A stretch of DNA of 64,000 nucleotides. It comes from Christensenellaceae bacterium. GTDB taxonomy: Bacteria; Bacillota; Clostridia; Christensenellales; UBA1242. The DNA lies in NCBI GenBank assembly GCA_031262595.1, contig JAISHI010000014.1, positions 11,276 through 75,275 of the forward strand, given 5' to 3'. The position numbers and the translations under genes are program-made. Below, piece by piece: positions 23,566-48,744 of the stretch. The first letter of the stretch is position 1. Each line of letters opens with the position of its first letter. Under the pieces are notes generated by a model, which was given only the letters and a program-made list of their open reading frames with translations, was not told where the DNA came from and did not search any database.

Positions 23566-23645
23566 ACTATATATATAGAAACAAAAATCGAGAAAAGCAA
23601 ACAAATCCTTTGCGTTTTCTAAAAAAATTCCGCATAATAGGTTAT

Positions 23646-27176: not shown

Positions 27177-30100
27177 TAAACTTTTGTTGATATTCGGATT
27201 TAACAGGTGTTGTGTCCACTAAAAATGGCGATTCAGAATATGTAAATGCCTCGTTAAGCCCTTCACTACTTGAGAAATTCCCCGAGTAGGTATTATCGCC
27301 GAACGCAGTAGACACTCCGTTCCAATCCTTTACCGCGCCGACAAAAGTTTTTCCGATAGAATAGCCGATAATTCCGCCCCTATAAAGCCCCGAGCTTACC
27401 GTTGGTTTGCTGTCGTTATTCCCACTTTGCCCGAAAGCGTTATTCGAAACGTCGCCGCCGTTGTTAAAACTTACGACCCCGCCGACAATAAGCGCGTCCG
27501 TCGTGCCGATTGCGCCGTTAATTACGATATTACCATCGACAACGCCATAGTTATACCCAACAATTCCGCCGAGGATAATGCCGTGTGGATCGCCTTCTAT
27601 GGTTTTAATAAGATTTCCGTTATTAAGGGTTATTATTACATCGCCGTCTTGGGTCGAGGAGTTAACCTCGCCGAAGTTTATGCCGACAATTCCGCCAGTA
27701 AAGAACGGCGTTATTGCGCCTGCCGTAAAGGTTAGCGCACCAGAATTTATTTTCGATATGACGATTTTTTCGCCGAGAACGCCCGCGAATCCGCCAGCAA
27801 CTTCCGCCGAGATGTTATTCCCCGCCTTTAGCGTTATGTTTTTGATATTATTTAATTCATCTATCTCGCTATTATTGAGAACTTCGCGGCTTACGAAAAC
27901 CGTTCCGAAAACGCCGCCCGAGATATTCCAAGTATTTTTAACGGTTAAGGCGTTGCGCTCGTCGGTATTCTCGTCCGCGTATTCGTTAATTAAATCTAGG
28001 TTTAAATAACTAGCCGCATCGGTAAACTTAAAGCCTACCGCGCGGTCGACAGTCGATTGCATCTTAACGCTTATGTTTTCGATTCGCTCATCGCCGGTTA
28101 AAGTCACCTCACCAACAAGCCCTCCAACGATATGCGCACCGCGAAGGTTCCCCGCCTCGATATTAACATCAACGATACTCGAACCTATACTCATTCCCGC
28201 TAAAACGCCCGCGTAAGTCGATTGGATATACATCGCGCTGCCAGTCGTTATTGTTTTAATCGTAAGGTTTTTAACGACAGCGTTATCAAGTTTGCTGAAA
28301 AGCCCGAAACTATATAACCCGAGTTCCGCGTCGCTCTCCGCGTTTTCCAAGCTTCCGCCGTCAACCGAATAATAGTTATTATAGTTGAAGATTCCGCCTT
28401 GCGGAACAGACGGCGAAAGGCTAAACTCACTAATCGTAAACCCGTTTCCGTCAAGCGTCGAGTCTTTTAACGTCGTTTTATAGGTTTGAAGCGTATTTAG
28501 CCCGACGAACCCGCCCGTCGCGGACGCCGCCGGCGTTAGTTCGTTTAACTTAATGTTCCTAACGAGCCGCATATGCCCAGTAAAGACCGCGTTATCGTAA
28601 GACGGAACGGAAGCGGCTCCGCCATCTCTGCGGTTTTTATCGTCTTCTTGCGCGCCCGAGCCGATATAGATAAGCCTGTTGAATTGCTCGCCGCTTGTTA
28701 TTAAGATTGGGTTGATTTTCGAGCCTAGGCTATACCCAACAACATAATTAAGAATTGGCAAGCCTTGTTGCGTAAATGTTCCGCTCTCCTCGCGCATCGA
28801 AACCGTTATATAGTTCGCGGAAATGAGCCTTGGGCCGAACTCCGTCATGCGCCAAACGCCATAATCGTCGTCGTTGCTTATACTATAACTTTCGAACTTC
28901 GTTATGTCGATAGTGTCGTCCTCCAAAAGCCGAGCGGCGCCAATCGTTGATATGGTTGTTGGGGTTATGGAGTTGTTCGTTCCAGCCTCGCTCGGCATAT
29001 TATTGTCCAAGCCATAAAAGTCCCCATACCCTTCCGCGACCGTCGCCTCAAACGCAACGTTCGCGATACAATTATTAACCGCACTCCCTTTATATAAGAA
29101 GCCGCTCGCCCTGTTCGCGCCCTCGACGACGATTTTTATCTCCGCTAAACAATCGTTAATCGTTCCGCGATTTTCGTACGCGAACCCTGACGTATAACCG
29201 GTTCTCGTTCGGATGCTTCCGTATAAGAGTTTTAAGGTTTCGGAGTTTCTTTGGGACGATTCGCCTTGGATATACGAAGCCGAGATAACCGCGCCCGCGT
29301 TATTCCGCCCAACAAAACCCGCCGTATAATGAACAATACTCGATTGCCCGCCGGTAAAGTTAAAGGAGGTTTCCGCATCGTTGTTTATATTTCCGTCGCG
29401 GAAGAAACTCGTCGTTATATAGCCGTTATTTATTGCGACGAAACCCGCCAAGATGACTTCATTTAGCGTTTTTGTCGTAGCGCCTGTCGCATAATTCGAA
29501 ACAGAAATATCAATTAAAACTCGGCTGTTTGAAATCGCGCCTGTTGTTCCGTTTTGCCCGACAAGCCCACCCGCGTTGAGGCTTATCCCCGCATTCGAAA
29601 CCCGAAGGTCGATTTTCGCGCCCGCACTCGACGCCGCGCCGTTAAAGATATAGGCGGATTGGTCGTAATTGGCTGTAATTTGTCCGTTCGGGAATTGTCG
29701 CTCCGAAAGAACCGCGCAGTTCGTTATAATACCGTTATTAACGCCCGCAATCGCGCCGAAGTTAACAGTCGCGCTCTTATTTCCAAAGTTATATAGGTCA
29801 ACGACAAGCAAGCCTTGTTTCGTTGCATCTTGTTGGTTCGGGATAACGACTTGGACGTTCTTAACGACGCTATTCTCACCAACGCTCGAAAATAAACCGA
29901 TATTATATTCGCCTCTGGCGTTCATTTGCGCGATATTAAATGATTGGATATATATTTTATAGTTATTTCCGTCGATGCTCGCATCATTAAACGCAAATGG
30001 AACATAATTCGTCAAAGTTATGTTGCTCATGAGGATATAATGCTTATTGTCCGCGATATTCATGTCGCTTAAATATCCTGCGAAGTTATCGCTCGTAAGG

Positions 30101-33100
30101 ATTATTGGGTTGTCCTCGTCGCTTGTTGTTCTGGTTATTATATTGAAATTTATCGATGAGCGCGCTCCGCCCTCGGCAACTATATAAGGAACGTTCGAGT
30201 TCTCATACGAAAGCCCAAGTTCCGCGCGAAGCGTATTCCCGCTCGAACTTGCCATAACCGAGATTATATATTTGCGCCCATTAGAAACGCCCATTCGATA
30301 ACTTAAATTATATTCGCTGCTAACCCCGTAAAGCCTACTGTCCGTATCGCTATAATCGAAGCTGCCGTTATTTAAAAGGAACTGCTCGCCGGTATACGCC
30401 CCGAACCAACGCACAAGTTCGCCGCTGTTGAGGCTATTCGTAAATTTTTGCATCACTGCGTTTAAGGTTTTCTCGAACGCTTTATAGTCTGCCGTATTCG
30501 AAGCTCCGATAATTCCATTCTTAGCCGAGATGAAGTTAGGTTCAAGCCAAACTTGTTGTTTATTATTGTTCATTAAGTAAATCGTATTGCTAGAAATATC
30601 AGTTAATGAATAGCCCGAAACGGTAAAGAGAACAGGTTTAATTACTAGATATTTATGTTGCGTTGCTTGCGCGAAATCGTCGTTTAAAGTATAGGCGAAA
30701 GTTATCCTAATTTCTTTATTAAGTAAGCTTTCGTCAATCGAATTTATCTTTAAAATATAACCCTGCCTATCCGCCGTTGATTGAGCCTCTAATAAAATCA
30801 AATCTTCTATCGTTTCCGACACGCCATCAACAGAAACTGTTGGGTTGCCCGCCATTTGCGCGTTGGTTAGGCTAACGTAAAGTTCGGTTTCAGTTCCTAG
30901 CGCTTGATAGCCAATTTGCCCGTCGCTCATCCATTTTCCGCAGTAGTTTACCGAGAGCCCCGGCTTTTCAGCGAGGTAAATTTTATGCGTAGCGTCTAGC
31001 GTATATTTCTCTTCACCGTCGAAACAATTTAACTTTATCGAAAGATTAAATGTTGAGTTTTGTTGCGGACGCATCGTTGGAACGAAGTTTTGGGTATGAT
31101 GGAACGGGCTTGGGAGCAGTTCCATTGCGAAATAGAAGCAACCGTTCCAACCGAAAGTTTGCCCATTAACCGTCGAAACTTGCTTAGCCGTAAAAGTTGG
31201 GCCGCGCGTTTCCGAAGCTACTCCACCTAAACCGCTGTTATTGCTTTCGCCGAGAGAGAGCGGAATATATTGTTTCGCGACTTCGTCATAAATCATTTGA
31301 GTAAAGTAAATTGTCCAATATTCATAGATAGGTTTATTTTTTATATCGTTGCCACGGCTATCTTTTTCGTAGCCGACAAATTGCTCGTAAACGTCCGCCG
31401 AAACCGAAACGCCATCGATAGGCGACGCATAAGGAACCGCCGTTATCCGCATAAGCCCTTTAAGCCCTTCGCCATTATAAAGGATGCTTGGGTTTTGCGT
31501 TTCCGCGCCGCTTTGAAGCCTTAAAGAATTATCCTCGAACGTTTCAACATCTGCGAAAACACCGGCATCGACGGTATCAACCCGACTTGTAAAGAGGCTG
31601 AAAGGTGTTTGCGCGCGAAGAGGATTGTTTGTCGATGGCGCGTTATTTAGCGCGTTCGGGCGAATTTCCGTCGCGGTTATGTTGCCCGCGAATTGCGAAA
31701 CTGCCGTCGCTAGCCCACCGTTATTTATAATTTCCCTATAACTAAGTGAATTATAAAAATCAGGGTTAATTAAAACGTTAATCGAGATTTTAAACCAATG
31801 TTTTTCATAAATAAAGTCGCCGCCGGGAACATCCTCGCTCTTTTCAAGCGTTAACGCGAAAGCAAGCGCATAGCCGTTCGTAATTTTTACATAAGAAACG
31901 TTATCGTCATGATAAACGTCGTTTGGTCGCGCACTCCTAATAAAGTTTTCCGCGCTATCCCAATTAGTAGTATTTGAGTTTACGAACAAATTCTTTATCG
32001 TATTTAGTTGCGACGAATTTAAATCGAATTTTAATATATCCGTTAATTTTAGGTTCTCATAAGTTCGGGTTGTTATATCACTTATAACGCTGCCTGTTAT
32101 GATTGCCGCCGCGGAAGAATCAAAAACGGATTCCGATTGGTCGAGGGTTAACTCGGTAGCTCCTGATTGAATTCGCGCGATAACTTCGGTTTTAAGCCCT
32201 ATTAAATAATGATCAATAAATTCGTCCCAAACACCATTGCCGTTCGCATCATAATAGGGAATATACGTAAATTTATAATCGCCGACCGGCAACGAAGAAG
32301 CGATTGCGTTCAACGCCCTATTATCATACTCGTCGCCGCTGTTATAAAGGGTTCCGCCTATGTCGTCAATTGTCGCGCGAATACTCCAACCCTCCGACGA
32401 CAAAGTTGCGTTAACGCTAAATTCTTGCCCGCGCCGAACGCTAAATGGGGTTTTGCCGCCAAAGTTATACGGGTCGTTCGCCATAAGCGATTTATACCCA
32501 ACGCGCCCGATGCCAGCCGCAAAAATATCGATATATTCAATAGAAGGGATAACCGCGACTTTTAAAGTTTTGATTATGGTGCCGCCCGCGCTCGAATTGC
32601 GGAATTCTATCTCGAAATTACCCGTCCCGTTAACTTCAAAATACCAACTAACCTCGCCGCGCGACGAATCGGACTTAATTCTTGCTAAGGCGCGCGAACT
32701 TAAATCCGCAAGAATCCAATTAGGTTGAATTTCATAGGAATGATACGCGGAAAGGTTCGCGTCTATATCTTCCTTAAAAATATCATCGAAATAATAACGG
32801 TTTGCGCGAACTGCCGAACCTTGTTGCTCTCCGCCGGAATAGAAAACCGCGATATCCGAAGCACCTAACTTCATAATATGGTTAAAGCCGTTCGCGTTAT
32901 TATAAGTTTTGTTAAGCGTAGGAAAACTATCTTTTAAGGTAAGCGCGGAACGCACCGGCGCATCCGAGCCCGGGTCCTCTTCTCCCATAAGCCCCGGCGC
33001 AGAGCCTTTCGGCGACCATTGCGTATATATATAGATAGGAATTTGCATCTCAACGAAATGCAACTCGCCAAACTCGTCGTCCTCAAATACGTTATCCTCG

Positions 33101-36100
33101 GCATATATTGTTAGAATAATATTCGCGCCGTTCGCTTGCCCAACGCTACCATAACCGCCATTACCCGACCAATACAATACGTTTTTCGACCCCTCCATTA
33201 CATAAAGGGTTTTAGACTTAGAAGAATTATACGTACTACCCTCATGCGGCGCTTCGGAAACGACGGCTGTTATACTTTTATTAAGCGCAGCGCTTGGATA
33301 GATATTATAATCGAGTTCGAGCGTAAATGGAGTAGTTTCATAACCGTAATCAACGCTTATTTCAATACAATCATTAGCCATCGAAACTTCTGGGCCAAGA
33401 AGCCTGCCGCCGTCATAAGCGGACGTTATCTTTTTTATGCCGAGCCCCTCGATTTGAACCGCGTCCTTAACGTCAACGTCTACATAAACGTCATAAAAGT
33501 TCGTAAAATTATAAACGAAATCTTCGTCGCCGTAGATATTTTCGAAGGTTTGGGTTATGTTGAATTGGAGTTTTTGTTTTGTTTCCGAGCGTAAAAGCCC
33601 CGTCAACTTATAAGAAGTTATATTAGTAAGCGCCGTTCCGCTCGCTGCTGGCGCGTAGTTATTGGCTCCTATTTTTTGTTCTAACTCAAAATTTTGCGAC
33701 GGATAAATCGGCGTTATACTTAAATAACTATCCTCCGCAATCCCGCCACTCGCGAATTTTAATCCTAATGTTAACTCTTTCGACGCGTTCGATTTCCCCA
33801 TAGTGCCAAGGCTCGCTAGCGTATAAAGCTCTATATTATTCAACGAAGGTGAAACATTCGTTAAGATATCTAAAACAACTAGATTTATTTTTAAACCCTC
33901 ATGCGAAAGATTTCCAAAAACCGCATCATTAACCGCCGAAACACTATAAGTTATTGTGCCCGTTGCCGTCGCGGTTATGATTGCACCTTCAACCCTAGTT
34001 TCAACGCCGCTTTTTGTTATGATTATGTTCTCGACCCAAATACCCGCGCCATTAGAAGGCGTTTTTTGGACAACAATCTCATAATTCCCGCCCTTTTTAA
34101 CAAAAACAGTTAGTTCGGGCTTTCCGCCAATAATATCCGTTTCGGTTTTTAAAACTTCTCCGCCAGCGCGCGCGACAACTTGCGGCGTTATAGAATCTAA
34201 CTCTTCCCAAACCCTAACGCGCATATGACGCGAGATACGGTTAAAATAAACGAGGGTAAAGCCGTAATCGACGCCTTGGGTTAACTTTTGGTTAACTTTT
34301 ATATCGTAAGCGAGGGTTTGAGTTGTATCGCCGCTTATATAATCCGCCGTAAACTTATCCTCGCTGTTCGCGTCCCAAACAATTTTAACGCCTTTCTCAT
34401 AAAGTTTTCTATCGCGCTTTTCCTCGTCGGTCGAGTTTATAAAGTCAATATCGTCGCTATCAACACTTATCCCCATCGAAACAGCGCGGGTTGGGTCGTT
34501 TAATAAATCTATAACGTTTCCGGTTGGCGTTATAGTCAACGCATCGTCGCTAACGAACCGATAAGCCTCAAGCGGAATTTTAAATTTACAAACCGAAGTA
34601 TTAGAAGAACCGCTCGGAACGTTTTTTATAACTAAAGTTAGGTATTTATTAAGTATGTCGCCCGAATCTTGACTATTAAGGCTTATCGCGAAGGTATTAT
34701 TATAAAAGAAACCGCCGCCGAGTTTTGTGTTCTTCGATGGGTTAATCATAGTCCAAACGCCGTTTTCTAGTATCTCGATTTTTAAACTTCTCGAAATGTC
34801 CATCAATGTAGAACCATCATAAAGCTCGAATAAAATATTCGCGTTATGCGGGCGCGCCTGAGTGTTTTGGAGTATATAGCCGTCCTTAGTTTCTAGAGAG
34901 AAGATTGTTCGCGGAAGCGGGTCGCTTGAATCTTGCGGAACATAAAAAACGTTAAGCCCCTGCGCGTCGTCATCATCGTCGGAATAATAACCGATATTAT
35001 TTTGTTCTTTAATAACCGCCATGTTCGCCGCCTCATCTAACTCATTCGCCCTTAAAACCCCGTCCTTAAACATATTTAAGACAACAACTTCCATAACATG
35101 GGTCTTTGTTAGATATGAATAAAACCCGTCCGCGCTATTTAGCGTTATAGTTCCGTTCTCGGTCTCTATTTTCGGCGTAAATCTAAATTCAACAAAACAA
35201 GCCCCTATATCGTTAGAGATAATGCTAACTTTTTTTTCTTTAAGGTCCTCAACTCTAACTTTCGAGCTATTAACATTTATATTCCCGAGAGTATCGCGGC
35301 TGTCGCTCGCGCTAACGGAATAAGCTAGCCTATTCCCGACAAAACCTGTTAGGTCTATATTTTCATGGTCTCTTAAATCGCCCCCGTCCGTTTCGGCATT
35401 CTTAACAAGCGTAATTTGGTTGGGGATACTCGGGTTGCCGTATGGTTCGATAACATAGACTTTAAAATTAACGAACTTTGTTGGGTCGCTACTAAGGCGC
35501 GCACGAAGATTAACGACACTCGGTGCGCTAGCCCCAACAATAAATTTATTGCCCTCTATCTGGCAGCCACTGTCCCCGGTTAAAATCTCGAAATCGAGTT
35601 TTTTATCCGTCGGGGTATAACTTTCCGTTTTAAAATTATCAACAGAATAAAAATTAAAGTATGCGCTATCTAATAAAAGTTCGCCGTGCCCGTTGCTAAC
35701 CTCTTCGCCGCTGCCGAGTTTTTGAACCGCGAAATATCTCTCGTCTTTTTGCTCGAAATCTTTCGCAATTATATTAACCGAAACCTCGATAGTTTGAGCT
35801 AAACCGCCTGCATTCGAAACAACAGTTATGTCCGTTTTTCCGCCCTTAATCCCTGCGGTTATGCGCATGTTTTGGTTGTCTATCATATTAACAGTCGCGA
35901 CGTTCTTATCCGAAACGCTTGCCGTCCAGCCAGTATCAACATTTTTCGGCATTTTATCGATTGTTATCCGGACGTCTTGATAGTCTATTCCGTCATGAAC
36001 GAGTATTCCATTTTCGTTTTTAAGTTTTAAATCTATCTCAACTTGCGTTCGCGAAACGCTCATACTCGCTTTAGAATAAGGGTTGGGAGTGTTCGAAGAA

Positions 36101-36177
36101 AAGATGGCGATAAGCCCAATAATGGATGCCAACCCGACGGCGGCAACTATTAAAATAAGCAACCTTCTTTTGTTCAT
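27154..36177 (-). CDS. giant (3007 aa) membrane-anchored extracellular protein with Ig-like (Big_2-like) N-terminal domains and C-terminal GLUG-motif beta-helix repeats
   Basis: N-terminal signal anchor MNKRRLLILIVAAVGLASIIGLIAIF and a Big_2-like segment (...VATVNMIDNQNMRITAGIKGGKTDITVVS...). The last ~900 aa carry many GG[LIV][VI]G repeats (GGLVGQNG, GGLVGEV, GGIVGINFG, GGIVGYNYG, GGVVSFNNG, GGIIGYS). There is no LPXTG. GGGGGA SD. Confidence 0.85.
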   Translation of the reverse strand: MNKRRLLILIVAAVGLASIIGLIAIFSSNTPNPYSKASMSVSRTQVEIDLKLKNENGILVHDGIDYQDVRITIDKMPKNVDTGWTASVSDKNVATVNMIDNQNMRITAGIKGGKTDITVVSNAGGLAQTIEVSVNIIAKDFEQKDERYFAVQKLGSGEEVSNGHGELLLDSAYFNFYSVDNFKTESYTPTDKKLDFEILTGDSGCQIEGNKFIVGASAPSVVNLRARLSSDPTKFVNFKVYVIEPYGNPSIPNQITLVKNAETDGGDLRDHENIDLTGFVGNRLAYSVSASDSRDTLGNINVNSSKVRVEDLKEKKVSIISNDIGACFVEFRFTPKIETENGTITLNSADGFYSYLTKTHVMEVVVLNMFKDGVLRANELDEAANMAVIKEQNNIGYYSDDDDDAQGLNVFYVPQDSSDPLPRTIFSLETKDGYILQNTQARPHNANILFELYDGSTLMDISRSLKIEILENGVWTMINPSKNTKLGGGFFYNNTFAISLNSQDSGDILNKYLTLVIKNVPSGSSNTSVCKFKIPLEAYRFVSDDALTITPTGNVIDLLNDPTRAVSMGISVDSDDIDFINSTDEEKRDRKLYEKGVKIVWDANSEDKFTADYISGDTTQTLAYDIKVNQKLTQGVDYGFTLVYFNRISRHMRVRVWEELDSITPQVVARAGGEVLKTETDIIGGKPELTVFVKKGGNYEIVVQKTPSNGAGIWVENIIITKSGVETRVEGAIITATATGTITYSVSAVNDAVFGNLSHEGLKINLVVLDILTNVSPSLNNIELYTLASLGTMGKSNASKELTLGLKFASGGIAEDSYLSITPIYPSQNFELEQKIGANNYAPAASGTALTNITSYKLTGLLRSETKQKLQFNITQTFENIYGDEDFVYNFTNFYDVYVDVDVKDAVQIEGLGIKKITSAYDGGRLLGPEVSMANDCIEISVDYGYETTPFTLELDYNIYPSAALNKSITAVVSEAPHEGSTYNSSKSKTLYVMEGSKNVLYWSGNGGYGSVGQANGANIILTIYAEDNVFEDDEFGELHFVEMQIPIYIYTQWSPKGSAPGLMGEEDPGSDAPVRSALTLKDSFPTLNKTYNNANGFNHIMKLGASDIAVFYSGGEQQGSAVRANRYYFDDIFKEDIDANLSAYHSYEIQPNWILADLSSRALARIKSDSSRGEVSWYFEVNGTGNFEIEFRNSSAGGTIIKTLKVAVIPSIEYIDIFAAGIGRVGYKSLMANDPYNFGGKTPFSVRRGQEFSVNATLSSEGWSIRATIDDIGGTLYNSGDEYDNRALNAIASSLPVGDYKFTYIPYYDANGNGVWDEFIDHYLIGLKTEVIARIQSGATELTLDQSESVFDSSAAAIITGSVISDITTRTYENLKLTDILKFDLNSSQLNTIKNLFVNSNTTNWDSAENFIRSARPNDVYHDDNVSYVKITNGYALAFALTLEKSEDVPGGDFIYEKHWFKISINVLINPDFYNSLSYREIINNGGLATAVSQFAGNITATEIRPNALNNAPSTNNPLRAQTPFSLFTSRVDTVDAGVFADVETFEDNSLRLQSGAETQNPSILYNGEGLKGLMRITAVPYASPIDGVSVSADVYEQFVGYEKDSRGNDIKNKPIYEYWTIYFTQMIYDEVAKQYIPLSLGESNNSGLGGVASETRGPTFTAKQVSTVNGQTFGWNGCFYFAMELLPSPFHHTQNFVPTMRPQQNSTFNLSIKLNCFDGEEKYTLDATHKIYLAEKPGLSVNYCGKWMSDGQIGYQALGTETELYVSLTNAQMAGNPTVSVDGVSETIEDLILLEAQSTADRQGYILKINSIDESLLNKEIRITFAYTLNDDFAQATQHKYLVIKPVLFTVSGYSLTDISSNTIYLMNNNKQQVWLEPNFISAKNGIIGASNTADYKAFEKTLNAVMQKFTNSLNSGELVRWFGAYTGEQFLLNNGSFDYSDTDSRLYGVSSEYNLSYRMGVSNGRKYIISVMASSSGNTLRAELGLSYENSNVPYIVAEGGARSSINFNIITRTTSDEDNPIILTSDNFAGYLSDMNIADNKHYILMSNITLTNYVPFAFNDASIDGNNYKIYIQSFNIAQMNARGEYNIGLFSSVGENSVVKNVQVVIPNQQDATKQGLLVVDLYNFGNKSATVNFGAIAGVNNGIITNCAVLSERQFPNGQITANYDQSAYIFNGAASSAGAKIDLRVSNAGISLNAGGLVGQNGTTGAISNSRVLIDISVSNYATGATTKTLNEVILAGFVAINNGYITTSFFRDGNINNDAETSFNFTGGQSSIVHYTAGFVGRNNAGAVISASYIQGESSQRNSETLKLLYGSIRTRTGYTSGFAYENRGTINDCLAEIKIVVEGANRASGFLYKGSAVNNCIANVAFEATVAEGYGDFYGLDNNMPSEAGTNNSITPTTISTIGAARLLEDDTIDITKFESYSISNDDDYGVWRMTEFGPRLISANYITVSMREESGTFTQQGLPILNYVVGYSLGSKINPILITSGEQFNRLIYIGSGAQEDDKNRRDGGAASVPSYDNAVFTGHMRLVRNIKLNELTPAASATGGFVGLNTLQTYKTTLKDSTLDGNGFTISEFSLSPSVPQGGIFNYNNYYSVDGGSLENAESDAELGLYSFGLFSKLDNAVVKNLTIKTITTGSAMYIQSTYAGVLAGMSIGSSIVDVNIEAGNLRGAHIVGGLVGEVTLTGDERIENISVKMQSTVDRAVGFKFTDAASYLNLDLINEYADENTDERNALTVKNTWNISGGVFGTVFVSREVLNNSEIDELNNIKNITLKAGNNISAEVAGGFAGVLGEKIVISKINSGALTFTAGAITPFFTGGIVGINFGEVNSSTQDGDVIITLNNGNLIKTIEGDPHGIILGGIVGYNYGVVDGNIVINGAIGTTDALIVGGVVSFNNGGDVSNNAFGQSGNNDSKPTVSSGLYRGGIIGYSIGKTFVGAVKDWNGVSTAFGDNTYSGNFSSSEGLNEAFTYSESPFLVDTTPVKSEYQQKFIGYYSAA

Positions 36178-36280: not shown

Positions 36281-37057
36281 TTAGTCGTAAAATTTGTTCG
36301 TTAAAATCTCCGCGCCGTTTTTCGTTATTAAAACCGTATTTTCGTAGTGCGCCGTTAGTTTTCCGTCGACCGAAACAACAGTCCAACCGTCCTTAGCCGT
36401 TTTTACGTCTTTTTTACCCGCTAAAATCATAGGCTCGATACAAATCGCCGTATTCTCAACCATTTTCTTGCGCGCGTCGGTTAAAAGTCTTGGGTGGTTT
36501 GGCTTATAGTTTGGGATAAGCGGGTCGAGATGAACTTCTTTCCCGATTCCGTGCCCGAAATAATTTTCGAGGATTGAATAAGGCGTATTCTTCTTAATAT
36601 AGCCCTCCACTGCCTCAGATATAGCGCCGAAAAGTGCGCCGGCCTTAACAACTTTAACCGCTTCAAAAAATGAGTTCCGCGTTTCGTCGATGAGCCTTTG
36701 TGCCTCGTCGCTTATTTTCCCAACGCCAAACGTTCGGCAAGCATCGGTATTCATTCCGTTATAACCCGCGCCGACGTCAACCGAAACAATATCACCCTCG
36801 TTTAGAACTTTGTCGGTTCTTGGCATTCCATGAACAATTTGCTCATTAACGGAAATGCAAGTCGCGTATTTATAACCGTGAAGCCCCTTAAAACAAGGAT
36901 TACAATCGTTATCTTTTATAAACTTATCCGCGAGTTCTTCGATTTGCATTGTCGTCATGCCCGCTTTAATTTCTTTCGCGAGAAATTTAAAGGTTTTCGA
37001 GAGAACTTCTCCCGCGAACCTTATATTCGAAATCTCTGTCGAATTTAATGCTCTCAC
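36281..37057 (-). CDS. map: methionine aminopeptidase type I
   Basis: 258 aa with the MetAP pita-bread fold metal-ligand pattern (VSVDVGAGYNGMNTDA, HGIGKEVH, CIEP). Confidence 0.92.
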   Translation of the reverse strand: MRALNSTEISNIRFAGEVLSKTFKFLAKEIKAGMTTMQIEELADKFIKDNDCNPCFKGLHGYKYATCISVNEQIVHGMPRTDKVLNEGDIVSVDVGAGYNGMNTDACRTFGVGKISDEAQRLIDETRNSFFEAVKVVKAGALFGAISEAVEGYIKKNTPYSILENYFGHGIGKEVHLDPLIPNYKPNHPRLLTDARKKMVENTAICIEPMILAGKKDVKTAKDGWTVVSVDGKLTAHYENTVLITKNGAEILTNKFYD

Positions 37058-37695
37058 TTCTTCCCTTCTTTTTCGATAATTTCTTTAACGAACGCATACG
37101 TATCCGCCGGCAAATATTCTTCCTTAACTTTAACGGTATGAAGTAAATTCTTATTCTTATAAAACTCTAATATCGCGCCATTATCTCTATTATAATTTGA
37201 GATCCTTTGTTTTATAACATCGGTTTTGTCGTCCTCGCGCTGATAAAGTTCGCCGCCGCAAGCCTTACAACAGCCCGAAACGTCGTCCCAATTCGAGTTG
37301 TAAATCGCCCCGCAATGGCGGCACATAAAACGCCCTGCGAGCCGTTTCATAACGATATCGTCGGCAACATCGAGTTGGATAACCATACTAACGTCGACAT
37401 ATTTTTCGAGCAATTCCGCTTGTTTAAGTGTTCGAGGGAAACCGTCGAGAATAAAACCGCCCGCGCAAGGCAAATCTTTCATCGCAGCAACTAACATATC
37501 AACCGTTAATTCGTCCGGAACCCAAACGCCTTTAGCAACATAACTCTCCGCTTTAATTCCAAGCGGCGTTTTATTTTTAATATTCTCGCGGAAAAGCGCG
37601 CCCGTTGAAATATGGCAAAGATTATAGTCTTTAACAAGTTTTTCCGCAACGCTGCCCTTACCGCCGCCTGATGGCGCATTTAAAATTATGTTCAT
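37054..37695 (-). CDS. adk: adenylate kinase (zinc-lid type)
   Basis: 213 aa. P-loop APSGGGKGS and lid CRHCGAIYN...CKACGGELYQREDD. Overlaps map by 4 nt. Confidence 0.9.
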   Translation of the reverse strand: MNIILNAPSGGGKGSVAEKLVKDYNLCHISTGALFRENIKNKTPLGIKAESYVAKGVWVPDELTVDMLVAAMKDLPCAGGFILDGFPRTLKQAELLEKYVDVSMVIQLDVADDIVMKRLAGRFMCRHCGAIYNSNWDDVSGCCKACGGELYQREDDKTDVIKQRISNYNRDNGAILEFYKNKNLLHTVKVKEEYLPADTYAFVKEIIEKEGKK

Positions 37696-37820
37696 CTTTA
37701 AATTCTTTTAACTCCCTAATAACCTATTATATGCAAAACCGAAAAGTCAAGGCTTTTATAGGCAAAATCAACGCAAGTTTTGTATTGACGAAAATACGTC
37801 TCGCAAGGTATCCTTATTAT

Positions 37821-39026
37821 ATGAACATCAACACGCTTTCCCCTTCCGCGAAACTCATTCGCAATTTCGTTATGGGCGAAAACCAACCGCAAATTTTAGT
37901 TTTAGTTTGTGGAGAGAACCTCGAAGAAACTAAAAAGCATGCTCTCGAAGGCATCGTTTCGGCTGGCGGAAGTTATCGCGTTATGGCTATCCCAGAGTTT
38001 AGCGAACTCGACAAAATCTCGCCCCTAACTGCGAATTATGCGAAAACCTATATGGCGGATATTTCTAAATTTATCGATAACTTACTCGAACAAAAACTCT
38101 ATGACGGCGTTTTAATTATCTCGAATAACCTTATCGGGGCGGTAGCGGCTATAAATTCTTGCGTTAATAAAAATATCCCGACAACAGTTCTTTCAGGCGG
38201 TTATGAAAGCGATACGTTAGAGCGGTTCTTGTCGTCGGTTGGCGCGGAAACTTGCGGAAAAATTACGAGCGCCGCTTTAAAAGAATTAACGCTAACGACG
38301 CAAAAATCAAATTCGTTCACCGAAAAAGGAATCGCGAATTCGCTAATTTATTTTCTCGAAAATCTCGGGCTCGCAGTTAAGGATGCCTCTAAATCGCCCG
38401 CAAATAGCCCTAAACAGCGTTTGGTCGCTTTTGAGGCTGGAAAGCAAGTCGCAAAGACCGCCAAAAATCAAGACGCGATAGTTAAACTTATAACGAAAGA
38501 AAACGTCGTTTCGGCGGCTAGCAAAATGGCGAAAAATGGATTTAACCTCTTCGCGCTGACATACTTAAATTTTGTCGATTTTAAAAAAGTTATTGCGCCG
38601 TTAATTAAAGAAAAAAACAGCCAAATTAAAACCGTTAGCGGAGTTTGCGACGCATTTATCCAAACTTCGGGCGCGACTTCAACCGTTTTCTCGGGCTCGG
38701 TTTGGGCATATGAGGATTTAACTAGCGCGGACGTTGGGCTAGCTAGCGGCGCGGTTGACGGCGGCGTTTTAGTTATAAAAAACTCGGCGGGCGTTGACGT
38801 TAGCCAAATCCAAAACGTTATTAAAGGTTTCGGGATTGCGGAAAAGTTTTTCGTTTTAACTAGCGGCGTCGCAGAAGTTAACGAGGTTGCTACGCTTTGC
38901 ATGGCTAGCGAGGATATCGACCTATTCGAAACCGGCGACGTTATCGAGATTGACCTAAATAAAGGCAAAATCTCGTCTAGCATTTCGGCGCGCGACTTAA
39001 AATTAAGGGCAAAACGCAAGCGATAA
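37821..39026 (+). CDS. IlvD/Edd (dihydroxy-acid dehydratase)-like protein lacking the catalytic motifs
   Basis: By eye, colinear with IlvD at both ends (QILVLVCGENLEE...AGG...DGVLIISNNLIGAVAAINSCVNKNIPTTVLSGG; C-terminus ETGDVIEIDLNKGKISSSISARDLKLRAKR). CDK is replaced by SNN and there is no DG(I/V)AMG. About 400 aa against about 560 for IlvD. The start at 37821 is uncertain. Confidence 0.45.
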   Translation: MNINTLSPSAKLIRNFVMGENQPQILVLVCGENLEETKKHALEGIVSAGGSYRVMAIPEFSELDKISPLTANYAKTYMADISKFIDNLLEQKLYDGVLIISNNLIGAVAAINSCVNKNIPTTVLSGGYESDTLERFLSSVGAETCGKITSAALKELTLTTQKSNSFTEKGIANSLIYFLENLGLAVKDASKSPANSPKQRLVAFEAGKQVAKTAKNQDAIVKLITKENVVSAASKMAKNGFNLFALTYLNFVDFKKVIAPLIKEKNSQIKTVSGVCDAFIQTSGATSTVFSGSVWAYEDLTSADVGLASGAVDGGVLVIKNSAGVDVSQIQNVIKGFGIAEKFFVLTSGVAEVNEVATLCMASEDIDLFETGDVIEIDLNKGKISSSISARDLKLRAKRKR

Positions 39027-39027
39027 A

Positions 39028-39861
39028 ATGAAAACAATAAAAGAAATCGAACAAAGCATAACAAAAAAGTTCCATACAAAAATTTGGACGAAGTTTATTG
39101 AGGGCATAAACCGATTTAAACTGCTCGATGACGGCGATAAGATTGCGGTTTGCGTTAGCGGCGGAAAGGATAGCTTCCTCCTCGCGAAATGTTTTCAAGA
39201 ACTAAAACGCCAAAGCGACAAAAACGGCAAATCAAACTTCGAGGTTATTTTCCTTTCAATGAACCCCGGATATAACGCCGAAAATCTCGAATTATTAAAA
39301 CAAAACGCCGAAAATTTAGGCGTTCCGTTAACGATTTTCGACTCGCCGATTTATGATACGGTCGAGAAAATGGGCGGAAATCCTTGTTATATGTGTGCCC
39401 GAATGAGGCGCGGGAATCTTTACGCGAAGGCGAAAGAACTCGGTTGCAACAAAATCGCCCTCGCCCACCATATCGACGATGCAATCGAAACTACGATGAT
39501 GAATATCCTTTACGCGGGTAAGTTCGCGACGATGATGCCGAAAATTAAGTCGAAAAACTTCGAGGGCATGAGCCTTATCCGCCCCTTAATCCTAGTTAGC
39601 GAGAGCGAGATTATCGCTTGGCGGAACTATCACGAGTTAAAGTTTTTGAATTGCGCCTGCCGCTTTACGGAAAATTGCGTTATAAACGAAAACGAACCCG
39701 GCGAATCGACGCGCCGCAAAATCAAGTTCCTAATAAAGGACTTAAAAAAGCTAAACCCCGCCGCCCCGCTCAACATCTTCAACTCGGCGAACAACGTTGT
39801 CCTTAACCAAATCCTCGGCTACAAAAAAGACGGCGAGTATTTTTCGAATGTTGATTGTTAA
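39028..39861 (+). CDS. ttcA: PP-loop ATPase, TtcA-family tRNA 2-thiocytidine biosynthesis protein
   Basis: SGGKDS PP-loop with Cys pairs (PCYMCARMRRG; CACRFTENC). Only a 1-nt gap after the IlvD-like gene. Confidence 0.75.
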   Translation: MKTIKEIEQSITKKFHTKIWTKFIEGINRFKLLDDGDKIAVCVSGGKDSFLLAKCFQELKRQSDKNGKSNFEVIFLSMNPGYNAENLELLKQNAENLGVPLTIFDSPIYDTVEKMGGNPCYMCARMRRGNLYAKAKELGCNKIALAHHIDDAIETTMMNILYAGKFATMMPKIKSKNFEGMSLIRPLILVSESEIIAWRNYHELKFLNCACRFTENCVINENEPGESTRRKIKFLIKDLKKLNPAAPLNIFNSANNVVLNQILGYKKDGEYFSNVDC

Positions 39862-40181
39862 AGCTTGTCTTTCCTCTCCTGTTTCTTTTCTGCTCTCTTA
39901 ATATATTTTGATATTCCTGTCTTAGAATTTAACATATCATCACTGTACTGTTTTGAACTAAGCATGCCCCGCATGACGTCATCGTCAATATTAGTAATTC
40001 CTAAATTTCGTGAAGCAATTAGCATCACCTCATGATAAGGGAAGTTAGGGTCTTTTTGTTTTAAGGCCTTTACTTCAAGATTAAACTTTTGGTCAGGACT
40101 CATATCCTTTCTTTGTTCGTCGCTTAATGAACTCCAACATTGAGGGTTTTTAATAATTTGCTTAAATTTTTCATCATCCAT
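39858..40181 (-). CDS. hypothetical protein (107 aa), CpG-poor, immediately downstream of tRNA-Gly
   Basis: Strong GGAGGT SD 6 nt before the ATG at 40181 (MDDEKFKQIIKNPQ...). The longer ORF in the track runs through the tRNA, so I reject it. The stop overlaps the ttcA stop (TTAA). Confidence 0.5.
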   Translation of the reverse strand: MDDEKFKQIIKNPQCWSSLSDEQRKDMSPDQKFNLEVKALKQKDPNFPYHEVMLIASRNLGITNIDDDVMRGMLSSKQYSDDMLNSKTGISKYIKRAEKKQERKDKL

Positions 40182-40211
40182 GTTGACACCTCCGTTTCGT
40201 TCGAATAAATT

Positions 40212-40285
40212 TGGAGCGGGTGAACGGAATCGGACCGTCGCAACAGGCTTGGAAGGCCAGTGTTCTACCATTGAACTACACCCGC
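40212..40285 (-). tRNA. tRNA-Gly (anticodon UCC), encoded CCA, with a non-canonical T-loop
   Basis: My fold gives GCGGGTG-TA-GTTC-AATGGTA-GAAC-A-CTGGC-CTTCCAA-GCCTG-TTGC-GACGG-TCCGATT-CCGTT-CACCCGC-T-CCA. Anomalies are C at position 55 and a U28:U42 mismatch. Confidence 0.8.
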
Positions 40286-44407: not shown

Positions 44408-45133
44408 TTATCGGTTGTCAAACTCGTTAAGCGCCTTCATTATGATTCCGGCGGCGACAGCAACGTTTAGGCTCTCGGCGAAGTCGTTCATTTTTATCGT
44501 GAAGGTTTTATGCGGAAGGGTTTTTAGTTCGGGCGAGATGCCTTGCCCTTCGTTTCCTAATATAAGCCCGAAGTTCGGGTCGTTTAGCGCGAACTCTTCG
44601 CCGTTTAAATCGGCTAAGATAAGTTTTTCGCCGAACGCGCCGCTTTTAAATTCGGCGATAAACTCGTTATAAGTTTTTTCTATAATATTTATAAATAACG
44701 ACAGCCCCGCCGAAGCGCGGATTGCCTTCGCCGAAAACGCGTCCGCCGAGTTTATTGAAATAACTGACTTAAACCCGAACGCAACCGCGCTACGAATAAT
44801 CGCGCCGACGTTCGCGGGCTCTTGGATATTATCTAAAACCAAATACGGAAAAGTTATCACGCCCGAATTCGGGATTTTCGCGACAGCGAGAACGCCTTTC
44901 GGGGTTTTAAATTCCGTTATTTCGTCGAAAAGTTTGTTCGATAAAACTTCGTTCGGCTCTATTTCGCCGCGATAATCCTCGCTCGCGAAAACGCCCGCCG
45001 CGAACCCTTTATTAACGCACTCGCGAACGAGTTTCTCGCCCTCAACGATACAAAGCCCCGACTTATCGCGCGCCTTTTTCATTTTAAGCGAATTTAATAA
45101 CTTAACTTTTTCGTTCTCACGCGAGGTAATCAT
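44408..45133 (-). CDS. SpoU/TrmH-family RNA 2'-O-methyltransferase (RlmB-like)
   Basis: Has the LDNIQEPANVGAIIRSAVAFG motif and the C-terminal SLNVAVAAGI knot motif. Confidence 0.8.
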   Translation of the reverse strand: MITSRENEKVKLLNSLKMKKARDKSGLCIVEGEKLVRECVNKGFAAGVFASEDYRGEIEPNEVLSNKLFDEITEFKTPKGVLAVAKIPNSGVITFPYLVLDNIQEPANVGAIIRSAVAFGFKSVISINSADAFSAKAIRASAGLSLFINIIEKTYNEFIAEFKSGAFGEKLILADLNGEEFALNDPNFGLILGNEGQGISPELKTLPHKTFTIKMNDFAESLNVAVAAGIIMKALNEFDNR

Positions 45134-47360
45134 ATTTAACCCTCCCCTCGCTCATCTCCGCGGTTATCTCGCGAACGCCTTGGTTCGATATAATAATTTC
45201 GGCGACTTTGTCCTCGACTTCTTTTTGGATAACGCGTTTAATAGGGCGCGCACCGAATTCTGGGTCATAGCCTTTCTCGACGATAAAATCAACGAGGTCA
45301 TCGTTATACTTAAACTCGACGCCTTTCCCCGAGAGCATTTTAACGAATTTTTCGAGTTGTAATGCGGCGATTTTCTTAACGTTTTCTTTCGAGAGCGAAT
45401 TAAAGACGATAATATTATCGATGCGGTTTAGGAACTCGGGTTTGAAATGCTTTTTCATGCCCGCGAGTATACTTTCCTCTTCGACCATAAGCGACCTATC
45501 CTCGCCGAACCCAATCGCCGTCGTTTTCTTAATCTCGCTAACGCCAACATTACTCGTCATAACGATAATCGCGTTTCTAAAACTCGTTTTTTTGCCGTGG
45601 CTGTCGGTTAGATGCCCCTCGTCGAGAATTTGCAACAAAAGGTTATAAACGTCGGCGTGCGCCTTCTCGATTTCGTCGAAAAGAACGATACAATAAGGGT
45701 TCTTCCTAACCTTTTCGCAAAGAACGCTCGCATCGTCATAGCCGACATACCCCGCCGGCGAGCCGATGAGTTTCGAAACGCTGTGCGATTCTTGGAACTC
45801 GCTCATGTCGAGTTTAATAAGCGACTTCTCGCTACTAAAAACCGTTCGCGCAAGGACTTTACAAACCTCAGTTTTCCCGACGCCGGTTCGCCCTAGGAAA
45901 AAGAAACTACCTATCGGTCGGTTCGTGTCACCGACGCCAGCCCGCGCGCGCCTAATCGCGCTCGCAATCGCATCGCAAGCCTTATCTTGTCCGATTATAC
46001 TCTTTTTAAGTTCGTCGGCGAGGTTGTTTAGACTCTCGCTCTCATCCTTCGAGATTTTCGAAACAGGAATTTTCGTTATACAAGAAACGACTTCGGCAAT
46101 ATCGTCGCTCGTTATCGCGGCGCGCTCGCCCCCAGCTCGGATTTTGGCTTTACTGCAAGCCTCATCGAGGACGTCGATTGCCTTATCGGGTAAATTCCTA
46201 TCATTTATATAACGGTCACTAAGGCTAACCGCCGCAACAATCGCATCGTATCCAATCTCGACTTTATGGAAACTTTCGAACCCCTCTTTAAGCCCAGCGA
46301 GAATCTCAATCGCTTGCTCCGTTGACGGCGGATTAACAATAATCGGCGCGAAACGGCGTTCTAACGCAGGGTCTTTTTCAATATATTTGCGGTATTCTTC
46401 AAGCGTCGTCGCGCCAACGGTTTGGAGGTCGCCGCGCGCGAGTTTCGGTTTTAAAATTTCGCCGATACCCATGCCGTTTTCCTTGTCGCCTGTCGCGGTC
46501 GCGATTGTGTGGAGTTCGTCGATAAATAAAATTATATCCTTTCGCTCCTCGCAAAGTTTTAATAACCCTTGAAGGCGGTTTTCGAGTTCGCCGCGATATT
46601 TCGTTCCCGCCATAAGGCTTCCAATATCAAGCGAAAAAATGATTTTATTTCTAAGAATTTCCGGAACGTCGCCGCTAATAATTCGCAGCGCAAGCCCCTC
46701 GACAATCGCACTCTTACCGACGCCAGCCTCGCCGATTAGAACGGGGTTGTTCTTAGTTTTTCGGCAAAGGATTTCGATCATTCTTTGCGTCTCGTCGTCG
46801 CGCCCGATGATATTATCAATCTTCCCTTGTCGCGCCTTTTCCGTTAAATCTATTCCTAAATTCAAAACGCTCTCTGGCAGTTTTTTTTCGTCGTTTTCGC
46901 GCGGATTTACGGAGGCACCCCCCTCAAATTCCGCGTTATTTGCGCTGTACGGCGTTTTCACCTCTTCTTTAAAGTTTTCTAGTCCGAGCGCAGCCAGCGA
47001 TTTACGCGATACGGCGTCGGCTAAACCCGAACGAATTTCGTTTAAAATAAATTTCGTTTGCGCTATTTTTTCCGCCAAAACGAATAACAAAACTTCGCTA
47101 ACAATCGCGCTGAGCCCGAACGCTTCTGTATATTTTTGCGCGGTTAATAAAACGTCGCTATAACCCTCGCCAGTTTCCGAAACGGAGCGGATTTCGGCAA
47201 TCGCGTTCGCCGAAACGCCTAGCGATTTTAGAATTTGTCCGGCGACGCAACCTTCATTTTTCGCGCAAGCAAAAAGCAAATGATAAGGGCGAACCTCGTT
47301 GTCGACCGTATACTGCCCTGCAATCCCAATAATCTTAATAACATTTTTCGTTAACTTCAT
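45117..47360 (-). CDS. clpC: Clp/Hsp100 ATPase, ClpC-like N-domain but no M-domain (ClpA-like architecture)
   Basis: 747 aa. Clp_N repeats, D1 Walker A GEAGVGKSAIVEGLA, D2 GRTGVGKTEVCKVLA. D1 runs straight into ...AKIRAGGERAAITSDDIAEVVSCITKIPVSK with no coiled-coil/UVR insert. Confidence 0.8.
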   Translation of the reverse strand: MKLTKNVIKIIGIAGQYTVDNEVRPYHLLFACAKNEGCVAGQILKSLGVSANAIAEIRSVSETGEGYSDVLLTAQKYTEAFGLSAIVSEVLLFVLAEKIAQTKFILNEIRSGLADAVSRKSLAALGLENFKEEVKTPYSANNAEFEGGASVNPRENDEKKLPESVLNLGIDLTEKARQGKIDNIIGRDDETQRMIEILCRKTKNNPVLIGEAGVGKSAIVEGLALRIISGDVPEILRNKIIFSLDIGSLMAGTKYRGELENRLQGLLKLCEERKDIILFIDELHTIATATGDKENGMGIGEILKPKLARGDLQTVGATTLEEYRKYIEKDPALERRFAPIIVNPPSTEQAIEILAGLKEGFESFHKVEIGYDAIVAAVSLSDRYINDRNLPDKAIDVLDEACSKAKIRAGGERAAITSDDIAEVVSCITKIPVSKISKDESESLNNLADELKKSIIGQDKACDAIASAIRRARAGVGDTNRPIGSFFFLGRTGVGKTEVCKVLARTVFSSEKSLIKLDMSEFQESHSVSKLIGSPAGYVGYDDASVLCEKVRKNPYCIVLFDEIEKAHADVYNLLLQILDEGHLTDSHGKKTSFRNAIIVMTSNVGVSEIKKTTAIGFGEDRSLMVEEESILAGMKKHFKPEFLNRIDNIIVFNSLSKENVKKIAALQLEKFVKMLSGKGVEFKYNDDLVDFIVEKGYDPEFGARPIKRVIQKEVEDKVAEIIISNQGVREITAEMSEGRVKYDYLA

Positions 47361-47432: not shown

Positions 47433-47762
47433 ATGCTTTGCGAGATTTGTGGTCAAAATATTGCGTCGCTTATACGCGGCGATTCTTTCGGAAATGAAAT
47501 TCGCGTTTGTATGCGTTGTTTAGATAAGCCGATTTTCTCGAAAGCGGATTTATTAGCCGACCTTATCGCGAACGATTTCGATATTTTTAGCGCGCCGATG
47601 ACGCCGCTAACTCCAAAACCTAAGGTTTGCCCTTGTTGCGGATATTCTTTCGAGGATTTTAGGGAGTTCGGCGAATTGGGTTGCAGCGAATGTTATAAGG
47701 CGTTCGCGGCGGAGTTAGCGCCCGTTATCGCGCGGCTTAAAAAGGCGGTTTATGATGAATAA
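47433..47762 (+). CDS. mcsA: McsA-like zinc-finger protein (activator of protein arginine kinase)
   Basis: 109 aa. CEICGQ...CMRC and CPCCGYSFEDFREFGELGCSECYKAF, as in McsA. Overlaps mcsB. Confidence 0.7.
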   Translation: MLCEICGQNIASLIRGDSFGNEIRVCMRCLDKPIFSKADLLADLIANDFDIFSAPMTPLTPKPKVCPCCGYSFEDFREFGELGCSECYKAFAAELAPVIARLKKAVYDE

Positions 47763-48744
47763 CATAACAAATATCGTCGTTTCGTCGCGGATAAGGCTCG
47801 CCCGCAATATAGAAAAAGTTCCGTTCGCGATAGATGACCCGCAATTTTTCGAAAACATCGCGCTCGGGATAAAGCAATCTTTCCCTGATTTTTATTCTAC
47901 GAAAGTTGCGGATATCGCGCCCGAGCTTGCAAGTTCCTTATTCGAGCAACATCTAATAAGTAAAGAAATCCTCGCCCACGAAAACTACGCGAGCCTTGTC
48001 GCGAACAAGAAAAACACGGTTTCGATTATGCTGGGCGAAGAGGACCACGTTCGCATCCAAGTTATAAAACAAGGATTTAATTTAAGCGAAGAATATCGCG
48101 AGGCGAGCGAGATTGCCGCCGCGCTCGAGAAAAAATTTAAAATCGCGCGGTCAAAGGAACTCGGATATATAACGAAATGCCCGACGAACTTAGGTTCGGG
48201 CATGCGCGCGAGCATTATGGTTTTCTTGCCGGGTCTTTGTTTAACCGGGAAGATTTTAAGCGTTAAAAACCTCTTCGGCGAACTTAAAATAACCTTTCGC
48301 GGCGAGAAAGGCGAAGGCAGCCGCAGCGACGGGTTTATGTATCAAATCTCGAACCAAGCCCATATTGCTCTGCGCCCAGAAGAGATTATCGACATGGTTA
48401 TAAAGGCGACGACGATAATTTGTGAGGCGGAACTCGCCGCCCAAGCGGAACTTTTTAATAAGGATAAGTTGGTTTTGCGCGATAGAGTTATGAAGAGCCT
48501 CGGGATTTTAACTTACGCCGAACTAGTTTCGCCCGACGAGGCAATCGAACACTTAACGAACTTAAAACTCGGCTGTTCTCTTAATATAATCCGCTTTAAA
48601 AACAACCGCATAATCGACGATTTAATTTTTACAACCCGCCCGCATACGTTATTTAGCCGTTTCGCAAAAAACGGTGCTCTCCCCGACCCGAACGCCGTCC
48701 GCGCAAAAGATATTAAATCGGTTATAAAGCAGAATTTACTTTAA
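47752..48744 (+). CDS. mcsB: protein arginine kinase McsB
   Basis: 330 aa. Phosphagen-kinase signature CPTNLGSGMRAS, plus EEDHVRIQ. Confidence 0.85.
   Translation: MMNNITNIVVSSRIRLARNIEKVPFAIDDPQFFENIALGIKQSFPDFYSTKVADIAPELASSLFEQHLISKEILAHENYASLVANKKNTVSIMLGEEDHVRIQVIKQGFNLSEEYREASEIAAALEKKFKIARSKELGYITKCPTNLGSGMRASIMVFLPGLCLTGKILSVKNLFGELKITFRGEKGEGSRSDGFMYQISNQAHIALRPEEIIDMVIKATTIICEAELAAQAELFNKDKLVLRDRVMKSLGILTYAELVSPDEAIEHLTNLKLGCSLNIIRFKNNRIIDDLIFTTRPHTLFSRFAKNGALPDPNAVRAKDIKSVIKQNLL

Follow-up and report, generated by a model that had tools for sequence, protein, structure and literature searches.

A shortened IlvD-like protein without catalytic and iron–sulfur residues, encoded next to a TtcA-family gene in a Christensenellaceae bacterium

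The dihydroxy-acid dehydratase IlvD, with solved structures from M. tuberculosis (PDB code 6ovt) and Arabidopsis (PDB code 5ze4), is a prominent iron–sulfur (Fe–S) client, and its canonical sequences of some 560 residues carry cluster cysteines, Mg2+ ligands, a carbamylated lysine and a catalytic serine. A second set of described proteins, E. coli TtcA (tRNA 2-thiocytidine-32 synthetase) and the [4Fe–4S] thiolases TtuA and NcsA (PDB codes 6scy and 5mko), shares a PP-loop, a CxxC motif and a third cysteine. Here we analyse a 64,000-nucleotide stretch of DNA from a Christensenellaceae bacterium (assembly GCA_031262595.1, contig JAISHI010000014.1, forward-strand positions 11,276–75,275), referred to as the window, in which relatives of both are encoded side by side. 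An IlvD-like gene of 401 intact codons (MDR0975706.1; 37821–39026) is followed by a gene for a 277-residue PP-loop ATPase of the TtcA family (MDR0975707.1, 'TtcA family protein' at NCBI; 39028–39861); both genes and all features described within them lie on the plus strand. At NCBI both proteins are assigned to an 81.4-kb contig of a Christensenellaceae metagenome assembly. The IlvD-like product is named 'dihydroxy-acid dehydratase' by NCBI and likewise by IMG. An original prediction, made from the sequence of this stretch, had instead proposed an IlvD/Edd-fold protein stripped of its catalytic and Fe–S motifs beside a TtcA-family gene, and our analysis supports that core reading. It adds that the window protein belongs to a conserved and selected family rather than being a one-off relic, and that most of this family keeps one cysteine of the IlvD cluster site together with three cysteines of its own, all of which are lost in the window protein. 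We regard it as very probable that the window protein is a non-catalytic member of an IlvD-derived family, encoded in an inherited operon with ttcA.

Descent from IlvD and loss of the active site

The window protein is homologous to IlvD, well beyond chance, and within the IlvD/Edd superfamily it derives from the IlvD branch. The Pfam model PF00920 matches residues 28–233 at an E value of 2.3e-11, and its score of 43.9 bits exceeds the gathering score of 27. The model of the C-terminal domain, PF24877, reaches 17.7 bits, below its gathering score of 27.7; precomputed PF24877 matches are present on other members of the short family described below. A profile of 12 members of this family aligned by hhalign with 15 canonical IlvDs over 402 columns, with the C-terminal domain covered, at a probability of 99.84% and an E value of 2e-30. 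The NCBIfam models matched by the window protein are all of the IlvD family (dihydroxy-acid or L-arabinonate dehydratase), with scores 14 to 19 times under the curated cut-offs (PRK00911, 44.4 against 644; TIGR00110, 32.6 against 618); models of Edd or of sugar-acid dehydratases are not among the best matches. With phmmer against PDB sequences, dihydroxy-acid dehydratases appeared at E values of 0.18–0.5, and solved structures were reached only by profile and fold methods. Queried with the window sequence alone, a word-indexed protein database returned just that protein, and a genome scan with peptides taken from the same sequence gave zero matches.

A model calculated by AlphaFold2 with a 53-sequence alignment is confident over the entire chain, with a predicted local distance difference test (pLDDT) score of 94.5 and a predicted template-modelling (pTM) score of 0.91, subject to the reservation that the input alignment included canonical IlvDs, so that the model illustrates the homology and is no independent test of it. 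The pLDDT obtained from the single sequence is 37.6. The predicted architecture retains two domains: a four-stranded α/β N-terminal domain and a β-barrel-like C-terminal domain. Foldseek superposes the model on 6ovt and 5ze4 with a query-normalised TM score of 0.80 (E about 4e-21), and its best 24 matches are IlvD/Edd enzymes without exception. The proposal of an IlvD/Edd fold is thus borne out by the agreement of PF00920, hhalign, the AlphaFold2 model and Foldseek.

Two sequences served as positive controls for the active-site motifs: P0174, which scores 854 bits against PRK00911, and P0186, regarded as canonical because of its source name and motifs. The two share TPCN, DG(I/A)xMG, GCDK, CPTxGSCAGMxTANTM, GPKGGPGMREM and TDGRFSG, and alignment against them confirms the loss of the catalytic and Fe–S residues from the window protein. 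The TPCN loop with the first cluster cysteine is deleted. The Mg loop xVSDG(I/V)(S/A)MG is replaced by PEFSELDKI (37992–38018), DG(I/V)(S/A)MG being aligned with S-ELDKIS, in agreement with the earlier observation that this loop is absent. The C-D-K motif, with a cluster cysteine, an Mg-ligand aspartate and the carbamylated lysine, is aligned with N103-L104-I105 (38127–38135); the original prediction had read this change as CDK to SNN, and although its register was one to two positions off, the loss itself holds and the conclusion is unaffected. The segment CPTxGxCxGMxTANTM is replaced by QKSNSFTEKGIANSLI (38301–38348; QKSNSFTE-KGIANSL in the alignment), in which the third cluster cysteine is lost and an 'ANS' remnant stays. 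A six-residue deletion removes the GPKGGPGM loop, together with the Mg-ligand glutamate of GPGMxE. At the TDGRFS motif, the window protein has T347-S348-G349-V350-A351 (38859–38873), the catalytic serine being changed to alanine and the aspartate to serine. The protein is also shorter than 560-residue IlvDs by about 160 residues, rather than the roughly 150 first estimated: a block of about 90 residues after residue 259, which comprises the end of the canonical N-terminal domain (deletion junction at 38589–38606), a C-terminal tail of about 30 residues and several short gaps account for the difference.

The NCBI name is an over-annotation because the window protein, lacking these residues, cannot be a dihydroxy-acid dehydratase of known mechanism. 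Apart from the names in the two databases, the view that it is a genuine dihydroxy-acid dehydratase can draw on the PF00920 score, which lies over the gathering score. It would have to accommodate the absence of all three cluster cysteines, the Mg aspartate, the carbamylated lysine, the GPGMxE loop and the catalytic serine, as well as the very low TIGR00110 and PRK00911 scores. Furthermore, the scan of neighbouring genes turned up no other ilv gene, and a search of the 64-kb window found neither a canonical ilvD nor a second IlvD homologue. We consider this view to have almost no chance of being correct.

A short IlvD-like family and its most degenerate member

An exhaustive phmmer search of 1.84 billion representative sequences (E <= 1e-3) returned 49 proteins. 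One set (P0122–P0133), with lengths of 400–450 residues, is 25–32% identical to the window protein over window residues 1–400 (E values from 1e-35 to 1e-23); a second set consists of proteins of 510–556 residues. The window protein is colinear over its full length with the short set, including the deletion of about 90 residues and the N-terminal MNxxTL. A family-profile scan of GTDB genomes located five loci, in the 'Bacillota bacterium' metagenome-assembled genomes (MAGs) Lab288P1bin46, bin142, bin73 and bin80 and in Christensenellaceae Coa324_bin42. The same profile found 58 loci in metagenomes, one from a giraffe sample and three from the JAEEGL/JAEEGK assemblies; most of the sample series are termite-gut metagenomes. 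Once duplicates were removed, 60 distinct loci other than the window remained. The ratio of nonsynonymous to synonymous substitution (dN/dS) is 0.06–0.13 in eight of nine close family pairs (for example 0.08 at a dS of 0.72 for L056/L058), with dS saturated in the ninth, and the family is therefore functional and constrained. It constitutes a previously undescribed group of 400–500-residue proteins of gut Bacillota (Christensenellales-like MAGs) under strong purifying selection. No curated Pfam or NCBIfam model specific to the short family was found, and literature searches for TtcA together with dihydroxy-acid dehydratase, or for IlvD-like, paralog or homolog proteins, found nothing relevant.

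Scores against PRK00911 fall in steps from 854 for a canonical enzyme through 601 (P0158), 556 (P0153) and 306 (P0147) to 78–95 for the short family and 44 for the window protein, which argues for derivation from IlvD proper. The intermediate position, in this series and in a neighbour-joining tree, is held by a group of unnamed clostridial proteins that are IlvD-like and degenerate but still of full length (P0147, P0148, P0153, P0158 and P0160; 520–556 residues). These have lost CDK partly or fully (SCDS, NDT, GSGE, NDN and KGL stand in its place) and, unlike the short family, keep the block of about 90 residues, a GPKG-type loop and the C-terminal tail. Two of them, P0147 (L073) and P0158 (L074), of 535–556 residues, are encoded by single genes outside ilv operons. 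The P0147 gene adjoins pyrG and a sigma-factor gene, and that of P0158 adjoins SpoIIE, an aldolase and adhE; the position of P0147 beside pyrG, which recurs in the short-family clade of L005 and L039, fits orthology. No ttcA was present near the full-length degenerate genes in the two loci examined.

The conserved parts of the family are a C-terminal barrel with (F)ANIQTGDxxEID...KGR and a basic K-x-R-A-K-R tail. In the window protein the best-conserved part, covering the C-terminal barrel strands and the basic tail, is ETGDVIEIDLNKGKISSSISARDLKLRAKRKR (38928–39023), and Gly372, Asp373, Arg396 and Lys398 are invariant in the 12-sequence family alignment. Across the 54 other members, four cysteines are each present at 83–89%: the CDK cysteine, those of N-C-P and Q-N-C, and that of T-D-G-x-C, which occupies the position of the catalytic serine. 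The family could on this evidence be a new enzyme or a metalloprotein, in which a re-wired site of four cysteines would bind a cluster or metal and the window member would have lost the site or would use other residues. The presence of the four-cysteine pattern in 54 members, the strong purifying selection and the retention of TDG in every member except the window protein all speak for such a site. Many members, however, have an incomplete set, with one or two cysteines absent: the whole L005/L039 clade has no CDK cysteine, and eight to ten members lack the cysteine at the serine position or that of QNC. All four are absent from the window protein, which carries serine for the otherwise invariant TDG aspartate, and the Mg ligands and substrate-binding loops are gone from all members of the family. 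A re-wired site is unlikely on balance; if present, it would count against our reading and would make the window protein an outlier of its family.

The window protein is a divergent, basal member of this family and the most degenerate one. The four cysteine positions are occupied by Asn103, Ile119, Ser322 and Ala351, and Ser348 replaces the TDG aspartate, which is retained in all 61 others of the 62 aligned sequences. The conserved proline segment (xxPxx) and the ANIQ motif are missing, the latter region reading DIDLFETGD. Trp295, Tyr297, Gly372, Asp373, Arg396, Lys398 and the structural glycines and prolines are kept. An approximate neighbour-joining tree has the window protein branching first within the short family.

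This degeneracy raises the question of whether the gene is a relic near loss, kept open only so that ribosomes reach ttcA. The loss of the four cysteines, the TDG aspartate, the conserved proline and ANIQ would fit, as would the lack of a visible Shine–Dalgarno sequence ahead of ttcA. On the other side are the 401 intact codons, the confidence of the AlphaFold2 model over the entire chain and the retention of the family-invariant residues just listed. In addition, the ratio of IlvD-like to TtcA distances is 2.10 for the window and L005, 2.06 for the window and L039 and 1.98 for L005 and L039, and is thus constant across the three pairs; the window lineage is therefore not accelerated, and an accelerated, decaying gene was rejected on the same grounds. 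The window gene does not look like a decaying relic, and we rate that explanation as very improbable.

The TtcA-like neighbour and the extent of the pairing

The protein encoded by the downstream gene contains the PP-loop SGGKDS (residues 44–49; 39157–39174), the pair C120-Y-M-C123 (39385–39396), presumed to provide [4Fe–4S] ligands, and C209-A-C211 (39652–39660), which would hold the third ligand. By analogy with E. coli TtcA, we take Cys120, Cys123 and Cys209/Cys211 to be the cluster ligands, and none of them varies in the alignment. The match to the NCBIfam TtcA equivalog NF007972 extends over residues 6–263 with 177.8 bits, below the cut-off of 272, so that the protein counts as a member of the family with a merely putative target nucleoside. 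The earlier assignment to the TtcA family stands, with PP-loop and cysteine motifs in place. The solved [4Fe–4S] thiolases TtuA and NcsA are matched with E values of about 1e-10. TtcA-like homologues are abundant in Clostridia, the closest being only about 59% identical.

The start of the IlvD-like protein is placed at 37821 because the N-terminus MNxxTLSP is kept across the family; an alternative longer reading frame from 37671 would overlap adk (37054–37695, minus strand), which is divergent. A possible Shine–Dalgarno sequence, AAGG (37806–37809), can be read 11 nt before the ATG, and a weak promoter-like match, TTGACG-18-TATCCT (37785–37814), is of a kind no commoner than expected by chance. 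At the other end of the gene, the TAA stop codon (39024–39026) is separated by one nucleotide from the ATG of the ttcA-like gene at 39028, as had been reported; this TAA-a-ATG junction (39024–39030) has no obvious Shine–Dalgarno sequence at the proper range. The operon structure is deduced from spacing only, because the sites found by promoter and terminator scans were no more frequent than in shuffled sequence. The previously suggested co-expression is consistent with the close spacing here and with the overlaps described next, which fit probable co-translation. We infer that both genes share one transcript and that their translation is coupled.

A hidden Markov model (HMM) derived from 120 TtcA homologues was searched against all open reading frames (ORFs) of all family loci. 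A ttcA-like gene directly downstream of the IlvD-like gene was found only in the window, in L005, L006 and L007 (one lineage, P0130) and in L039, the giraffe locus; the HMM detected none upstream at any family locus. Downstream sequence of 800 bp or more is available for 47 of the 60 non-window loci, and the pairing occurs in two of these 47. In L005 and L039 the two genes overlap by 17 nt. The pairing thus recurs in relatives, but as a minority state. The window TtcA is 51–54% identical to those of L005 and L039, and over the divergence of the linked pairs identity is about 52% for TtcA and about 26% for the IlvD-like partner. The three IlvD-linked TtcAs carry a specific insertion of four residues after QELxR (RQSDKNGK, RQSKLAHR and RQSRLAKR), which none of 119 other homologues has; in the window it is QELKRQSDKNGK, within QELKRQSDKNGKSNF (39196–39240). 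This derived insertion, shared by the linked TtcAs, points to a single inherited arrangement and not to repeated recruitment. In the neighbour-joining tree, the linked lineages branch at or beside the base and form no single group. The simplest reading is that one ancestral ilvD-like/ttcA operon was retained in three lineages over deep divergence and was broken elsewhere, including in a large termite clade. Taken together, the fold, the missing ligands and the recurrence of the pairing in L005–L007 and L039 leave the original prediction intact in each of these respects.

Other genes recur beside the family. At 24 loci of the termite clade (including L010, L012, L014 and L015), a convergent metallophosphoesterase gene (MKxFAISDLHLSF...) lies immediately downstream of the IlvD-like gene, often with a gene for an RluA-like pseudouridine synthase beyond it (ten loci), past which an rRNA-methyltransferase-like ORF was read by eye in two loci. 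Members of the L005/L039 clade have an M1 peptidase gene (six loci) directly ahead of the IlvD-like gene and on its strand and, farther upstream, pyrG (five loci).

There is about an even chance that the adjacency carries no functional meaning. The gene order would then simply be inherited, and the IlvD-like protein would have a role unrelated to tRNA thiolation, for example as a small-molecule sensor or as the structural partner of some other component. The pairing is limited to the window and two related lineages with the common TtcA insertion, and the family has the other recurrent neighbours described above, namely the metallophosphoesterase and RluA-like genes and, in the L005/L039 clade, the M1 peptidase gene and pyrG. 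The tight coupling has, on the other hand, been kept down to the TtcA and IlvD-like identities given above, which is long for a neutral arrangement, and in the L005 clade the gene sits in an M1 peptidase/IlvD-like/ttcA string.

We infer that the window protein acts without catalysis, as a module for binding or as a scaffold. Its likeliest role in the window lineage, speculative and in itself improbable, would be an accessory function in TtcA-type tRNA thiolation; a functional partnership remains speculation because the pairing is rare and stems from one inherited arrangement. The protein itself is a well-folded descendant of IlvD that has lost every canonical residue checked for Fe–S or Mg2+ binding or for proton abstraction, together with about 160 residues of length; the C-terminal barrel and the basic tail are its conserved parts. 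As an accessory it may, for example, dock the TtcA-like enzyme to Fe–S or sulfur delivery proteins, or to tRNA. A persulfide relay was considered and rejected, as there is no cysteine common to the three ttcA-linked IlvD-like proteins. A broader proposal, in which the short IlvD-like proteins would form a new class of accessory factors for [4Fe–4S]-dependent tRNA thiolases and would serve as adaptors delivering Fe–S or sulfur carriers, or else tRNA, to the insertion-marked TtcA subclade, is improbable.

Several points count against an accessory role. At 45 of the 47 loci with enough downstream sequence, ttcA is missing within about 3 kb, and close sisters of the linked loci have other genes in its place (a convergent gene in L008 and thyX in L036, L037 and L038); an adjacent ttcA is therefore not required for the function of the family. 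Elsewhere, TtcA homologues function in the absence of such a protein. The absence of a shared cysteine noted above belongs here too, and any activity, ligand or partner of the window protein would be putative.

Genomic setting, implications and comparison with known systems

The genes scanned around the pair include map, adk, SipL, veg, ruvC, yebC, clpC, mcsB, RNase J, fusA, spoIIIAE, polA and der. This context is one of housekeeping and sporulation genes and is of the type of endospore-forming Clostridia. A PADLOC search gave no match to defence systems. A 137-residue ORF listed at 39858–40271, without a Pfam match, is convergent with ttcA, and its stop overlaps the stop region of that gene. 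The same ORF overlaps a tRNA-Gly(TCC) gene (40212–40285, minus strand), and the true gene probably starts at an internal methionine (MDDEKFKQ...). On the minus strand at 27154–36177, a giant ORF of 3007 residues combines a hydrophobic segment at the N-terminus with numerous short glycine-rich repeats of the form GG(F/I)VG...N.G.I and encodes what looks, by sequence, like a secreted or cell-surface repeat protein. A 283-residue ORF (48741–49595, minus strand) resembles S-adenosylmethionine synthetase in the N-terminal domain alone (PF00438, residues 3–67 at 37 bits) and is perhaps a further case of a degenerate or truncated homologue of an enzyme; it adjoins an mcsB-like gene (47752–48744) and a clpC-like gene (45117–47360). 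Tandem SurE-family paralogues are encoded on the minus strand at 21941–22711 and 22711–23700, the second being longer (329 residues) and a weaker match. An Aminotran_5 gene of the cysteine-desulfurase type is located at 11504–12613 (minus strand), 26 kb from the window ttcA.

The window protein and, by extension, the roughly 60 family loci should not be read as dihydroxy-acid dehydratases when the metabolism of gut Christensenellales is reconstructed, where this label would wrongly imply a capacity for branched-chain amino-acid synthesis. The series documented here starts at an active Fe–S dehydratase, passes through degenerate forms of full length and ends, step by step, in a shortened, strongly selected, non-catalytic family; neither curated models nor the literature that could be searched yielded a description of a pseudoenzyme lineage of the IlvD/Edd fold. 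If the coupling to a distinctive TtcA subclade were functional, the protein would be an unrecognised helper in Fe–S-dependent tRNA thiolation in strict anaerobes.

Compared with IlvD (PRK00911/TIGR00110), the window protein shows full-length homology and the same two-domain fold as the M. tuberculosis and Arabidopsis enzymes. It retains the landmarks AGG, DGxVxI, NIPxxVxGG, (T)ANS, T-x-G, GDxIxID and the C-terminal arginine. It differs in having no cluster cysteines, Mg ligands, carbamylated lysine or catalytic serine, in being about 160 residues shorter and in being encoded outside any ilv operon. The TtcA-like protein has the PP-loop, CxxC motif and third cysteine in common with E. coli TtcA, TtuA and NcsA and is set apart from them by its lineage-specific four-residue insertion. 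Its relatives have, in place of an IlvD-like partner, a neighbouring cysteine desulfurase gene, SUF genes or a rhodanese domain in the same polypeptide: a cysteine desulfurase gene lies immediately upstream of the clostridial ttcA-like gene in three of five cases (L003/L004, L076 and L077), a SUF operon lies downstream at L002, and about a third of the best 120 TtcA homologues contain the fused rhodanese. The occupation of this upstream slot in the window lineage by an IlvD-like gene and not by a sulfur-mobilising gene is suggestive only. It would be as if, in one lineage of gut Clostridia, a dead descendant of IlvD had taken the translationally coupled position that elsewhere belongs to the cysteine desulfurase.

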